From a virus (Duplodnaviria; Heunggongvirae; Uroviricota; Caudoviricetes): DNA of 12,506 bases. A program made the position numbers. The DNA lies in the IMG/VR virus record IMGVR_UViG_2681813454_000001; one strand, written 5' to 3'. Shown here one piece after another: positions 3,001 through 12,000 of the stretch. Every line of letters begins with the position of its first letter. The stretch's first letter is position 1.

Positions 3001-6000
3001 TAACCGTGGAATATAATCAGGATAGTTTTGACTATTTTTTCTCCCCGTTTTTGTTGAGTTTCCTGATTTAAAACAAACACTTGTAGATGATTTTATCATC
3101 TACAAGTCTACGGGAACGTTGCCCAGCTATTTTGGCAGAGACACCTCTTATCATCGACCTCCTGATATTGAAGATGCAGGCCTTATGCACCTTCATTTAG
3201 CAATTGGTGAAAATAAATTTGAGCCAATAAAAAATGGCACAGATATCAGCACACCGCAAAAGTTGCAGTGGCATAAAACATCCAATACCGCTCTCGTTTA
3301 TGCACAAAATCTTTTTGATGAGAACAGGTATTCATTGATTGCTCTTTTTCATCCTGTAGCTCACATGTCTGCTAACAATCATAATAGAATGAGAGTGTTA
3401 GCAGGGTATGCGAGAGACTTTAGAAACACTATGTTTGACTAAACCCACCGTCAGGTGGGTTTTTTATAAGGAGTAATCATGATTTACCCATCAAACAACC
3501 CACCAGTTTGCCTGATTGGATGCCAGCCTTGCAGTTTTTATGGAATTAATTATGCCATGCTCAAGAGCCTTGTTAGCATCCAAAATGGTCGAGTCTGCTA
3601 TCAGGGATGCCCACCTAATATGGGTTCCGATGTCGATATTGAACGTCTCAACGAAGCGATCAAGATCGTTATCGAGGCATTTCCCGTACTCTCTCAATCT
3701 GGCATGGTCGGCGGCTGGGGAGGCAAAGCACCATAATAGAGGATGTAACAGGAATCTTGATAATGGGTTTGCGAAACGTTCTGAGCCAGCCAGGAAAACG
3801 ATATTAGCTATGGATTCAACATTGCTTATGTTGTGAGTTCTAACGGTAACAGGGAGTGACTTAAGAAAGTTATACGCAGTAAAGCCAGCAGCAGTTTCCC
3901 CTCCCTGACTTGATATATGGATATTTAATTCAGTTGCGCCTTGAGATAATGCGGTGAGACAGTGGTTCTGAAGTTGCCCAACAGTGGCAGTGTTAACAGG
4001 GCATAAGAAATGAATTGTGTGCAGCATTATTTTTCATCCTTAGCATACATGGTCTTTAGCGTCTCAAGTAGCGCCTCTTTGAATTTATCAGCTTCTTGCT
4101 GAGCAAATGACTCAACTGACTTTGGCGACCTATCTTCATCAATCGCGGCTTGCAAAATCATGACGATCTCGGAGTTAACAGAGCGACCATTTTTTGATGC
4201 TCTGACAGCAAGAGCCTCGCGTAAAGATTCAGGGATTCTTACCGTAGTTGGAGAAATTGACACACCCTTTGCCATATAACACCTTTGGTATTCAATTTGA
4301 TAGCAAAGTGTATGCAAAAAAATTTTGACTAGATATACTCACTTTGCTATCTTTTGTATTCGAAAAGAGTTGTTTGCGTGGAGGGTAACATGGAGAAAGA
4401 AATAAGTAAGATTTTGGTAAGGATGCCGCAGTCGTTAAAGGATGCTATCGGTAGCAGGGCAAAGGAAGAGTGCAGGTCGTTTAACTCAGAGGTTATCAAG
4501 CGCCTGATAGACAGCCTGAAGAGAGAGGGGGTAACGGTGTGATTCGCTTGGATGCAGTAGTCAAAGAGATTGCGATTACCATTTTAAGACCAAATTTTGT
4601 TCATGGCGAATCATTTGGCACGAACGAAAAATTGAGAAGAGAAAGAGTATTCAGTGGCAAGCGCACGTTTTCAGAAGTGATGCTTGATGCGGCAAAGAAA
4701 TCAAAACAGTGAAGCCCCAACTGCTGGAACAGTCAGGGCTTCGGTTGTCGGTAAATCCGTGGAGAAAAACCAACATGAATAGTATAGCAATTTTAGAAGC
4801 AGTGAACACCTCTTACGTGCCATTCAACGGTCAGCAAATTATCACCGCCATGGCTGCCGGAGTTGCATATGTTGCGATGAAGCCAATCGTTGAAAACCTC
4901 GGAATGAGCTGGTCAACGCAGCAAACAAAACTCATGAAGCAGATTAGCAAATTCAACTGTGTTCATATGAACATGGTTGCCGCTGATGGTAAGCTTCGTA
5001 AGCTACTCTGCCTTCCTTTGAAGAAGTTAAATGGATGGCTGTTCAGCATCAACCCTGAGAAAGTTCGTGCTGACATCCGCGATAAACTGATTCAGTACCA
5101 GGAAGAATGCTTTACTGTGCTGCATGACTACTGGACAAAGGGAGAGGCAGCAAATGCACGGAAGAAAACATCTGTTGATGACAGGACTCCGCTTCGTGAT
5201 GCTGTAAATATGCTAGTCAGCAAAAAGCATCTAATGTACCCAGAAGCTTATGCAATGATTCATCAGCGTTTCAATGTGGAAAGTATTGAAGAGCTTGATG
5301 CATCTCAGATACCACAAGCAGTAGAGTACATCCACAGGGTAGTGCTTGAAGGTGAGTTCATCGGCAAACAAGAGAAGAAAACCAACGAGCTTTCTGCAAA
5401 AGAAGCAAACAGCCTTGTATGGCTATGGGATTATGCCAACCGCTCACAGGCATTATTCCGCGAACTGTATCCGGCGCTAAAACAAATTCAATCGAACTAT
5501 TCCGGCAGATGTCATGACTGCGGTTATGAGTTCTCCCGTATTATCGATATGGCGAGAGACGTTTTAATCAATCACACACGAGATGTTGATATCAATGAGC
5601 CAGACGGACCAACGAATCTTTCCGCATGGATGAGACTTAAGAATAAAGAATTACCTCCTTCAGTACATAATTACTGACAGATAACCAACGCAACGACCCA
5701 GCTTCGGCTGGGTTTTTTTATGCCCAAAATTCACCGTGGCCATGCTGCGGCGATTCTTTGCATCTGGAGCAAATTAAATGACAGACATTACAGCCAATGT
5801 GATTGTATCGATGCCTTCGCAACTCTTCACTATGGCGCGTTCTTTTAAAGCCGTAGCCAATGGCAAAATTTATATCGGTAAAATTGACACTGACCCGGTA
5901 AATCCTGAAAACCGGATTCAGGTTTATGTAGAGAACGAAGACGGCTCTCACGTTCCTGTTTCGCAACCAATCATCATTAACGCTGCTGGTTACCCTGTAT

Positions 6001-9000: not shown

Positions 9001-12000
9001 CAGGGTGAAAATTAAACAGGAAGAATTTGTTTCAAGGGATTTTGTCTACGGAGCCACTCCTAACAGAACGCTTCCTACTTTTATGTCGACGTCAGGCGTG
9101 AGGACGGTTCCTGTACCCGTTGATTTCACAGATGATGTTGCCGTCCAGTCACTGACTGTCCATGCAGGTACATCAGGACAAGTTCGCGCGGAAGTCAAAC
9201 TTGAGGGTAATTACGCCATTATTGCGAAGAAAGTACCGTCTGATGATGTTACCGCTCAGAGATTAATCGTTAGCGGCGGTGAAACAACGTCTTCAGCAGA
9301 TGGTGCAATGATAACGTTGCATGGTTCCAGAAGCAGTACTCCACGTCGCGCGGTATATAACGCACTCGAACATCTTTTTGAGAACGGAGATGTTAAACCT
9401 TATCTTGATAATGTAAATGCTCTTGGTGGTCCGGGAAACAGGTTCTCGATAGTTTATCTTGGCTCCAATCCTGTGGTTACCAGTGACGGAACATTAAAGA
9501 CAGAGCCGGTCTCTCCTGACGAAACATTGCTGGATGCCTGGGGTGACGTCAGGTATATCGCTTATAAATGGCTGAACGCTGTCGCTATAAAGGGGGAAGA
9601 AGGGGCGAGGATACATCATGGTGTAATCGCGCAGCAACTTCGTGATGTTCTTATTTCTCACGGACTCATGGAAGAAGAAAGCACAACATGCCGCTATGCC
9701 TTTCTTTGCTATGACGATTATCCCGCAGTATATGATGACGTCATTACTGGCCAAAGGGAAATGCCGCTGACTGATAATGACGGGAGCATCATTGTTGATG
9801 AGGATGATAATCCAGTGATGGTAATGGAAGACATCATTGAGCGCGTTGAAATAACGCCAGCAGGATCTAGATGGGGGGTCAGACCTGATCTCTTATTCTA
9901 TATCGAGGCAGCATGGCAGCGCAGAGAAATAGAAAGAATAAAAGCTAGGTTAGACTTAATAGAAGGGAAGCACTAAATGTTTCGTTGGCGTCAAAAATAT
10001 GAACTGATCACATAAAGAAGTAAGTACATTGGCAAAAAACATTGACGTCAACGAAATTAAATATAAAAATTTAAATGCTTTTTAATGACAAGAAAAGTAA
10101 CTAGTGGTAAAATAACGTAGGATACTAATATGTTAAGACTCAAGACTCAAGACTCAAGACTCAAGACTCAAGACTCAAGACTCAAGACTCAAGACTCAAG
10201 ACTCAAGACTCAAGACTCAAGACTCAAGACTCAAGACTCAAGACTCAAGACTCAAGACTCAAGACTCAAGACTCAAGACTCAAGACTCAAGACTCAAGAC
10301 TCAAGACTCAAGACTCAAGACTCAAGACTCAAGACTCAAGACTCAAGACTCAAGACTCAAGACTCAAGACTCAAGACTCAAGACTCAAGACTCAAGACTC
10401 AAGACTCAAGACTCAAGACTCAAGACTCAAGACTCAAGACTCAAGACTCAAGACTCAAGACTCGTTTTCCGTTGATGATAATGGGTCAGGTAATGTTTTT
10501 GTATGTGGAGATCTTGTAAATAGCAAAGAGAATAAAGTTCAGTTCAATGGAAACAATAACAAACTTATTATAGAAGATGATGTTGAGTGTCGATGGCTTA
10601 CCGTAATATTTAGGGGTGATAATAATTACGTAAGAATACATAAAAACAGTAAGATTAAAGGTGATATTGTCGCAACAAAAGGTTCAAAAGTTATTATCGG
10701 TAGAAGAACGACAATAGGTGCAGGTTTTGAAGTCGTCACTGATAAGTGCAATGTTACAATTGGCCATGACTGCATGATAGCAAGAGATGTTATTTTGCGT
10801 GCATCAGATGGGCATCCTATATTTGATATTCATAGCAAAAAAAGGATTAATTGGGCAAAAGATATCATTATATCTAGTTACGTATGGGTAGGGAGAAATG
10901 TCTCTATAATGAAAGGAGTATCTGTTGGAAGCGGATCTGTCATTGGGTATGGGAGTATTGTAACTAAAGATGTGCCATCTATGTGTGCAGCAGCCGGTAA
11001 TCCAGCAAAAATAATAAAAAGAAATATAATATGGGCAAGAACGGATAAAGCGGAGCTAATTAGTGATGACAAGAGATGCTCCAGCTATCATGCGAAGCTC
11101 ACGCAATAAATATAAAACATCATGCAGACATATTACCAATATTAATATAAGGTAATAAAAATATAATTTACAAAAAAGCCCGTTGGAAGCGACGGGCATT
11201 AACCGCGGTAATGGATAAATTATTAATGTTTTTAGATTGTGAACGATATCATATTGTGCGGAAGTAGTGAAGTAACCATGTAAAATGATTGTTTCATAGC
11301 CTATGAGACACACAAGGCTTTGTGCTCTTCGATAGTTGTTAAGGCGGATCACTCTACCTTCTCATCAAGCCAATCCGCCCACCACTGCATCATTTCTCTG
11401 CGCTTATCGAGATACTGAGCATGGTTGTAAATACCGCGCACAGATCCGCCGTTGGCATGTGCCAGTTGCACTTCAATAGCGTCAGCAGGCCATTCGTGCT
11501 CGTTCATAATCGTGCTGAATTCATGCCTGAATCCGTGACCGCTTTCTAGACCCTCATAGCCGATTTGTTTGATCACAAGTAGAACTGCGTTCTCGCAGAT
11601 TGGCTTCTTCTTATCGTTGCGCCCGGCAAAAACAAACTCTGATACTGGTTTGGTGATGGAGCTTAGCGTAGTGAGAAGTTCAACCACCTGGTCTGACATC
11701 GGGACCACATGAATTTTGCGTCCCTTCATCACACTGGCGTCGATGGTGATAATCCTGTTTTCAAAATCGACGTTCTTCCATAGCATGGAACGAAGCTCTT
11801 TCGTTCTTAGGGCTGTGTAGCGTAAAACTTTGGTCGCAATGAGCGATACGATACTTCCTGAAAATGTTGCCAGTGCTTTGTTGAATGCAGGGATCTGGTC
11901 TGCAGGAAGAAACGGGAAGTTCTTCTTGCGGTATCCCTTCATGGCGTCAGCAAGGTCAGGTGCCGGGTTATATTTAGCCCTACCAGTGACAATAGCGTAA

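Follow-up and report, generated by a model that had tools for sequence, protein, structure and literature searches.

The window analysed here, the whole stretch of 12,506 nucleotides, is a 100% match to Escherichia coli ST95 strain SF-088 and holds every gene that is left of a decayed CUS-3-like (P22-family) prophage at argW. In SF-088 the element measures about 12.8 kb between its att cores, with dsdC-torI at one end and intS-argW at the other, and its gene order is dsdC-torI-stub-IS-'gp16-...-ant-tailspike::IS-neuO-intS-argW. None of the capsid, portal, terminase, lysis, replication, immC or cI genes is present in these 12.8 kb. The cargo between gp16 and mnt consists of a ClpP-like gene, a YafO-family toxin gene and hypothetical genes, in which a PADLOC scan found nothing credible. 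The two copies of the insertion sequence are called IS-A and IS-B, and the features are as follows, in window coordinates:

1..201, minus strand: torI/xis, recombination directionality factor of the argW module
259..348, minus strand: 3' stub of an early-left ORF (168-bp ORF, homologue of CUS-3 ECRS218_0063), truncated by IS-A
350..1599, minus strand: IS-A, second copy of ISEc52, with 0/1250 differences from IS-B
1600..1875, plus strand: last 276 nt of a gp16-like DNA-ejection gene, truncated by IS-A, with a weak Phage_P22_gp16 match
5778..6763, plus strand: 5' part of the tailspike gene, codons 1-328 plus 2 nt
6761..6763: left CGT target-site duplication, a single CGT at the PE144 empty site
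6764..8013, minus strand: IS-B, intact 1,250-bp IS3-family element (ISEc52, IS911-like)
8014..8016: right CGT target-site duplication, a single CGT at the PE144 empty site
8017..9976, plus strand: 3' part of the tailspike gene, with the beta-barrel, the rest of the propeller, the stalk and the S74 chaperone
10130..11109, plus strand: neuO, polysialic acid O-acetyltransferase contingency gene
11349..12506, minus strand: intS integrase, intact, adjoining argW

The tailspike gene is interrupted at codon 328/329 by 1,253 bp, and the entry point of IS-B corresponds to the start of the beta-barrel nested within the catalytic propeller. When 6764..8016 is removed in silico, 5778..6763 and 8017..9976 join into a 2,946-nt ORF that runs for 981 aa without an internal stop. 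The natural empty site in PE144 reads ...CTTCGCGT/TTATGG..., with one CGT only, so that the insertion is demonstrated directly and does not reflect chance. The reconstructed protein is identical to the intact PE144 tailspike at 981 of 981 residues, and to SiaK1 of CUS-3 at 975 of 981 (99.4%). The GenBank record of SiaK1 notes direct assay evidence for endo-alpha-sialidase activity.

The domain composition of the reconstructed protein agrees with this relationship. Its N-terminus carries the P22-type head-binding domain (Pfam Head_binding, residues 1-113, E 3.8e-64), with the N-domains of Sf6 and P22 as PDB matches, followed by End_N_terminal (146-212), End_beta_propel (213-662, E 1e-233) with End_beta_barrel nested inside it (324-406), End_tail_spike (663-817) and Peptidase_S74 (818-878). 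The endoNF structures 3gvl and 1v0e match the protein at E=0, and 3gw6 matches residues 698-979 (E 2e-93). Two Asp-boxes fit the sialidase pattern S-x-D-x-G-x-x-W: SGDDGKTW at aa 262-269 (nt 6561-6584) and SSDLGTSW at aa 517-524 (nt 8579-8602), one on each side of the insertion. The motifs at E488, R503 and R554 are identical to those of endoNF, with equal spacing of 15 and 51 residues, and these three residues align with the active-site Glu/Arg/Arg of endoNF. Ser818, in VVT/SDG, is the conserved Ser of the release site of the C-terminal intramolecular chaperone. By the sequence comparisons, the split gene is that of a K1 endosialidase tailspike; activity on alpha-2,8 polysialic acid is on record only for its CUS-3 counterpart, 99.4% identical, in the GenBank note on that protein. 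This bears out most of what an earlier note had read from the DNA alone: that a 1250-bp IS and a CGT duplication split a tailspike of about 981 aa between its two Asp-boxes, that the protein joins a P22-type head-binding N-terminus to an S74 C-terminal chaperone, and that it is of the K1 endosialidase kind, as the excision and alignment now indicate. The SF-088 chromosome has one matching place only, and thus no second tailspike copy.

Judged by its interrupted coding sequence, the SF-088 tailspike gene is a pseudogene of the endosialidase tailspike family. The 5' part covers the head-binding domain and N-terminal extension as well as the start of the beta-propeller and the first Asp-box, and would give an N-fragment of 339 aa whose last 11 residues are encoded by the IS. 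The second Asp-box, E488, R503, R554 and Ser818 all lie in the 3' part. Neither fragment is likely to yield active enzyme, since the N-fragment stops short of the chaperone domain and of most of the propeller, and the C-fragment begins only within the propeller and has neither a start codon nor its promoter context.

IS-B codes for OrfA, of 100 aa, and for OrfB; a -1 frameshift at the A6G site, IS position 324, joins the two into a 382-aa OrfAB. HTH_Tnp_1 and rve domains are present. Its ends are TG...CA, with imperfect terminal inverted repeats in which 27 of 45 terminal positions match. IS911 (IS3 family, IS3 group) shares the length of 1,250 bp, near-identical terminal repeats, the 3-bp duplication and the OrfA/OrfB organisation with an A6G -1 frameshift and a 382-aa OrfAB, but nucleotide identity to the IS911 copy of phage Sf6 is only 94.9%, and RefSeq/PGAP assigns IS-B to the 'ISEc52 family'. 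By ISfinder convention, about 95% nucleotide identity is needed to share an IS name. The element is better described as IS911-like, and is probably not IS911 proper, the name given to it previously; its insertion is a clean IS3-family event. IS911-like sequences occur at 11 places in SF-088 and 10 in PE144 (10 versus 9 outside the remnant).

IS-A lies 6.4 kb upstream of IS-B in the same orientation. Its flanks, TAG and AAC, are without a target duplication, and it fuses the early-left stub to the 3' end of the gp16-like gene, which indicates that about 30 kb of prophage are missing. The left junction falls within the 168-bp ORF of phiv205-1 and CUS-3, and the right junction within the gp16-like gene of AH21I008, at the same position as in PE144. 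The genes gone with this stretch are those for immunity, replication, lysis, packaging, head and most of the ejection apparatus. The deletion may have arisen through recombination between two IS copies, or through intramolecular transposition.

PE144 provides the order of events. It carries the identical IS-A deletion junction, base for base, together with an intact tailspike and neuO in frame; the deletion therefore predates the insertion, an order that follows by parsimony from this one sister genome. Very probably, then, the locus is a decayed CUS-3-like prophage at argW in which one ISEc52 transposition knocked out the tailspike after the loss of about 30 kb. An IS-associated deletion would have killed the phage, and the element, perhaps starting from the adjacent IS copy, would then have reached the tailspike gene by copy-out/paste-in transposition. 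This insertion may have been a selectively near-neutral step of prophage decay, during which the host would have kept neuO and the argW recombination module. In this reading, the split of the SF-088 tailspike belongs to the ordinary late decay of a prophage that was already dead.

The argW recombination module (KplE1/HK620/Sf6 type), as defined in PMC3509656, is complete in the SF-088 remnant. Besides intS and torI, the 17-bp att core AATGGTGTCCCCTGCAG is found twice (L001 14312 and 27067), giving attL and attR, and the element would be expected to remain competent for excision. The neuO body shows 0/649 differences from CUS-3; however, its 47 AAGACTC heptad repeats (10135-10463) place it out of frame, in the phase-OFF state; a tract of 45 or 48 repeats would be ON. 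The view that neuO and the integrase are both intact is consequently right for intS and for the body of neuO, but not for its reading frame.

It had also been proposed that the insertion, by abolishing adsorption, locked the prophage in as a conversion element; in other words, that an otherwise functional prophage was disabled by this event and neuO thereby fixed. The tailspike is truly inactivated with no second copy, and neuO and intS are kept, as this proposal would have it. However, the element has lost every gene for morphogenesis, lysis and replication as well as those of immC, and with no head, terminase, lysis or replication genes the remnant of about 12.8 kb could make no virion, even if its tailspike were intact. 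PE144 has the same deletion, which came earlier, and yet an intact tailspike. An insertion into an already dead prophage locks nothing in, and by its sequence the element is not barred from excision, as intS, torI/xis and the two att cores are still there. We regard the proposal as very improbable. An equally small chance is given to the reverse order, in which the tailspike was hit before the deletion and PE144 later had its gene restored, either through exact removal of the IS or through recombination with a further CUS-3 copy. With a single sister genome to compare, such a history may be imagined, but precise loss of an IS3-family element along with one copy of the duplication is rare, PE144 has one IS copy fewer, and a 1-bp deletion in yafO that is common to SF-088 and a metagenome scaffold is absent from PE144, which fits a less derived state. 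That the assembly misplaced an IS copy into the tailspike is the least credible explanation and has almost no probability. Two identical 1.25-kb repeats only 6.4 kb apart in a repeat-rich genome could invite such an error, but the 3-bp duplication is perfect, the IS ends are exact, and the independent metagenome assembly, which has the SF-088 genotype, is bounded by both IS ends and stops inside the IS at both of the same junctions.

The distribution of the gene in other genomes bears on whether its loss could be selected, for instance if K1 hosts gain from destroying a prophage endosialidase and so protect the polysialic acid of their capsule. The tailspike gene is carried by 181 complete genomes. 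SF-088 is the only one of 5,426 complete genomes with an IS in the tailspike at this site; AH21I008, CEA212U, ESBLEC_HM50, OZ547099, 19AR1321 and 19AR0253 were considered as sharers of the insertion and rejected, as their ISEc52 lies in ant and not in the tailspike. Across strains, at least six independent IS insertions, of five IS types, are found at distinct sites of the tailspike gene (nt ~24, ~216, ~500-560, ~945, 986 and ~1287), a recurrence that speaks for selected inactivation. All of them lie within the 5' 44% of the gene, a bias that is post hoc and confounded, as the ranking would miss large mid-gene IS elements. Strong selection is argued against by the uninterrupted 2,946-bp ORF in about 90% of some 100 genomes among the matches listed, including the dead PE144 remnant, and by IS counts that show no significant enrichment per kb relative to nearby genes: of 8 IS events in the prophage right arm, 4 hit the tailspike, which accounts for 31% of the DNA (binomial P ~0.2), and ant, gp16 and replication genes are also IS targets in these prophages. 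Moreover, since the late-gene activators are deleted in the SF-088 remnant, expression of its tailspike is unlikely. Selected inactivation is accordingly held to be very unlikely. The wider idea that the CUS-3-type tailspike gene is a recurrent inactivation target in K1 E. coli, through selection against a self-directed depolymerase or a regional IS preference and not through random decay, appears only slightly less doubtful.

Several known systems resemble the locus. CUS-3 of E. coli K1 RS218 (CP000711) occupies the same argW site, with the same order of int, neuO with AAGACTC repeats, tailspike and ant, and its DNA is >99.9% identical to the window over the 3' 2.2 kb of the tailspike and over neuO. 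It differs in that the window has an IS-split tailspike, has lost about 30 kb from gp16 through the early-left region, carries other cargo between gp16 and mnt and has 47 neuO repeats instead of 19. EndoNF of coliphage K1F (PDB 1V0E, 3GVL, 3GW6) shares the propeller with a nested beta-barrel, the stalk and the C-terminal intramolecular chaperone, but has a T7-type adaptor at its N-terminus, whereas the gene in the window has the P22-type head-binding domain and is a pseudogene. For KplE1 of E. coli K-12, excision competence has been shown. KplE1/CPS-53 is, like the SF-088 element, a defective argW remnant of about 10-13 kb with intS/torI and attL/attR, the conserved argW recombination module (PMC3509656); it differs in cargo, as the SF-088 remnant holds neuO, a disrupted endosialidase gene and an immI region that includes sar RNA.

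That CUS-3 decays while neuO is kept has been published before. Connolly et al. (PNAS 2022, PMC9659370) described pseudogenised tail and coat genes in CUS-3-like prophages, and deletions after which a retained neuO lies no more than about 8 kb from dsdC. Their account differs from ours in being without the tailspike IS insertion of SF-088, the IS-bounded junction and the order of events. The split tailspike gene and its IS are already annotated in RefSeq.

The significance of the insertion beyond bookkeeping is little. The SF-088 element nevertheless gives a clean, datable case of stepwise prophage domestication in a pandemic ST95 lineage, in which an IS-bounded deletion of 30 kb was followed by a hop into the tailspike. 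What survives this decay is a phase-variable capsule O-acetyltransferase, neuO, and an integrase/excisionase module. The locus also cautions that a single pseudogene should not be taken as the cause of prophage immobilisation unless the rest of the element is checked.

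The window matches in a single piece, at 100% identity, the chromosome of Escherichia coli SF-088, an ST95 bloodstream isolate (PMC4645194), where the tailspike gene is interrupted by an insertion sequence, here IS-B:

6764-8013, minus strand, IS-B, 1,250 bp, with imperfect inverted-repeat ends TGAAGTGG...CCACTTCA
6761-6763 and 8014-8016, CGT on both sides of IS-B

In-silico removal of 6764-8016 joins 5778-6763 to 8017-9976 in a 2,946-nt ORF of 981 codons with 0 stops, as expected from the earlier note, in which the flanks rejoined in frame once the IS and one CGT were taken out. 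The restored frame is not coincidental, because a natural empty site exists. In PE144, a sister E. coli genome, the site reads ...CTTCGCGT followed at the insertion point by TTATGGTGG..., with CGT single, and the tailspike protein (WP_000129907.1) is identical to the reconstruction at 981/981 residues. IS-B entered at codon 328/329, where the beta-barrel has only just begun, and the upstream fragment would continue through 11 IS-encoded residues to a stop, giving 339 aa. The split tailspike can safely be predicted to be non-functional, since the whole propeller is in neither fragment and the chaperone domain is missing from the N-fragment.

The reconstructed protein shows the following Pfam domains, and two Asp-boxes:

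aa 1-113, Head_binding
aa 146-212, End_N_terminal
aa 213-662, End_beta_propel
aa 324-406, End_beta_barrel, nested in End_beta_propel
aa 663-817, End_tail_spike
aa 818-878, Peptidase_S74
aa 262-269 and 517-524, the two Asp-boxes, with the insertion between them

It is identical at 975/981 positions to SiaK1, the endosialidase tailspike of CUS-3 (a prophage of E. coli K1 RS218), with all six differences within aa 43-121; direct-assay evidence for the endo-alpha-sialidase activity of SiaK1 is cited in its GenBank record. In a PDB sequence search, aa 145-817 matched endoNF, the endosialidase of phage K1F, at E=0, aa 698-979 matched the endoNF C-terminal chaperone domain (3gw6), and the N-terminus matched the head-binding domains of P22 and Sf6. 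The split gene belongs, as a pseudogene, to the endoNF/SiaK1 family of endosialidase tailspikes, and the P22-type head-binding N-terminus, both Asp-boxes, the S74-like C-terminal chaperone domain and the K1 endosialidase identity proposed in the earlier note were all recovered. E488, R503 and R554, which align to the active-site Glu/Arg/Arg of endoNF, are all in the downstream fragment.

Read on the minus strand, IS-B codes for a 100-aa OrfA (HTH_Tnp_1) and for an OrfB in which rve domains are recognised. Programmed -1 frameshifting at an A6G slippery site would yield a 382-aa OrfAB, which explains the 'frameshifted' pseudogene flag given by PGAP, and the element looks intact. It is an IS3-family element for which 'IS911-like' is accurate, whereas the name IS911 used previously is slightly loose: the IS911 copy of phage Sf6 aligns with it collinearly but at only 94.9% identity, and RefSeq gives the name 'ISEc52 family'. 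The upstream copy, IS-A (350-1599, minus strand), has the same orientation and 0/1250 differences from IS-B. These direct copies (span 350-8013) enclose 5,164 bp with the gp16 stub, cargo genes, immI, ant and the tailspike 5' part, a potential substrate for another deletion by recombination and, in formal terms, a unit resembling a composite transposon. The transposase genes of IS-A are co-directional with torI/xis, the recombination directionality factor gene adjoining downstream (window 1-1599). As the native early-left promoter was lost by deletion, IS read-through could, purely speculatively, be the sole source of xis transcription.

In SF-088 the gene order is dsdC, torI, an ORF stub, ISEc52, the 3' stub of an injection-protein gene, hypotheticals, a YafO-family toxin, ClpP-like, Arc/Mnt, Ant, tailspike::ISEc52, neuO, intS and tRNA-Arg (argW). 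Genes for capsid, portal, terminase, lysis and replication, as well as cI/cro, are all absent from the element; complete CUS-3 (40.2 kb) and phiv205-1 are the references showing what is missing, and overall it is a CUS-3-type prophage shrunk to a KplE1-like remnant. The antisense RNA sar, part of the immI region in P22, is kept upstream of ant (4708-4774, minus strand; Rfam RF00262, 83.9 bits), as are Arc/Mnt-type repressor genes. IS-A is flanked by TAG on the left and AAC on the right, and so has no target duplication. Its left flank lies inside a 168-bp early-left ORF adjoining xis, where intact phages read on as CAGTCGTTG..., and its right flank lies 276 nt from the end of a gp16-like ejection gene. 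Since these two stubs are joined at IS-A, ~30-31 kb of prophage is gone, and the deletion may have arisen either by recombination between two IS copies or by intramolecular transposition.

PE144, from chicken liver in Pakistan, carries this remnant too: its IS-A junctions are identical base for base (flanks 340-349 and 1600-1610), its tailspike is uninterrupted and its neuO is in frame. IS911-like elements occupy 11 places in SF-088 and 10 in PE144 (10 versus 9 outside the remnant). Relative to PE144, the YafO-family toxin gene of SF-088 (2993-3442) has a frameshifting 1-bp deletion at ~3047 (CCCCGG to CCCCG), which is also present in an independent metagenome scaffold and is therefore real, not a sequencing error. 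Parsimony suggests that the large deletion came first, followed by the yafO frameshift and the tailspike hop. With the deletion earlier, the insertion struck a prophage already unable to make particles, and hence cannot have 'locked in' the element, as had been proposed; the SF-088 element lacks head, packaging and lysis genes, and PE144 combines the same deletion with an intact tailspike.

By sequence criteria, the SF-088 element is not locked at all. The integrase gene intS is retained, as the earlier note stated, together with torI/xis and both copies of a 17-bp core:

~90 bp beyond the left edge of the window (SF-088 locus L001, 14312-14328), core AATGGTGTCCCCTGCAG
argW 3' end, the integration site (L001 27067-27098), the other copy

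This recombination module at argW (intS, torI/xis, att cores) is the conserved one described for KplE1, HK620 and Sf6 (PMC3509656). The CUS-3 GenBank record labels a 16-mer, GGAATCGAACCTGCAA (window 221-236), as 'attR core', a placement by which xis/torI would fall outside the phage. Phage N7, whose genome comes from virions (L005, 20874 and 21184), has GGAATCGAACCTGCAA on the far side of xis, before the following ORF, and AATGGTGTCCCCTGCAG in the int-xis interval, a position that marks the 17-mer as the attP core. The 17-mer thus looks like the real core, and the CUS-3 record is probably ~300 bp too short.

The polysialic acid O-acetyltransferase gene also persists:

10130-11109, neuO, ATG at 10130, with 47 AAGACTC units at 10135-10463

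Its ORF stops at 10519 because 47 repeats are not divisible by three, and removing two units in silico gives a 321-aa NeuO protein. The earlier description of neuO as intact holds structurally (0/649 differences from CUS-3 in the gene body), but the gene is phase-OFF. Variation in repeat number is the known mechanism of neuO phase variation (PMC13001214). Annotated ORF lengths indicate ~60 repeats in PE144 (ON) and ~15 in AH21I008.

At least 80% of the tailspike gene was found in 181 of 5,426 complete E. coli genomes, and among these 5,426 the insertion at the codon 328/329 CGT site is seen in SF-088 only. An intact second copy, raised earlier as a possible objection, is absent from SF-088, which has one matching place. 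Among ~15 billion proteins, the exact 339-aa product recurs in one other contig only, a 5,271-bp metagenome scaffold (ENA ERZ28605438; L013, LIAN20-2_SAMN11031408 scaffold_390) equal to window 1547-6817. Both of its ends are inside the IS, and it has the same CGT tailspike junction; with the yafO deletion, this means that the double-IS genotype is real and is not confined to the assembly of the SF-088 isolate, since this scaffold comes from a different sample. Other insertions in the tailspike gene are:

nt ~945, IS3-family, in FY26 (L009), NCTC11151 and MS20654
nt ~1287, IS3-family, in GPEC128-620 (L010)
nt ~500-560, IS3, in 2022E04-002 (L011)
nt ~24, ISEc12, in type strain DSM 30083 (L012)
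nt ~216, IS66-family element, in phiv205-1 (L003)

Counted with that of SF-088, all six independent insertions, by five IS types, fall in the first ~1,290 of 2,946 nt, a weak 5' clustering that was noticed post hoc, under detection biased against large mid-gene IS elements. If selection or targeting repeatedly inactivated the endosialidase gene, this would account for at least six independent hits by five IS types, but we consider it very improbable, as the ORF is whole in ~90% of ~100 genomes among the matches listed and a rough count (4/8 events in 31% of right-arm DNA) gives no significant IS excess in the tailspike. In related prophages, IS elements are also found in ant, gp16 and one replication gene. 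In our reading, the tailspike hits reflect sporadic decay and no targeting of the gene.

A tendency to decay has been reported for CUS-3-like phages: pseudogenes are common among their tail and coat genes, and deletions leave neuO, which is kept, within ~8 kb of dsdC (Connolly et al., PNAS 2022, PMC9659370). The split gene and its IS are already annotated in RefSeq, and events of this kind are known. The observation of the earlier note is confirmed and its interpretation partly supported; what is added here is where exactly the junctions lie, that the deletion is bounded by an IS, in which order the events probably took place, and that the genotype recurs independently in a metagenome, details that would not surprise a specialist. 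In the AH21I008 group of related ST95-type genomes (L007, 1349-2518 and 22908-24077), ISEc52 lies in ant and at a second site, a deletion junction from a replication gene to the holin region, which indicates repeated remodelling of CUS-3-type prophages by ISEc52.
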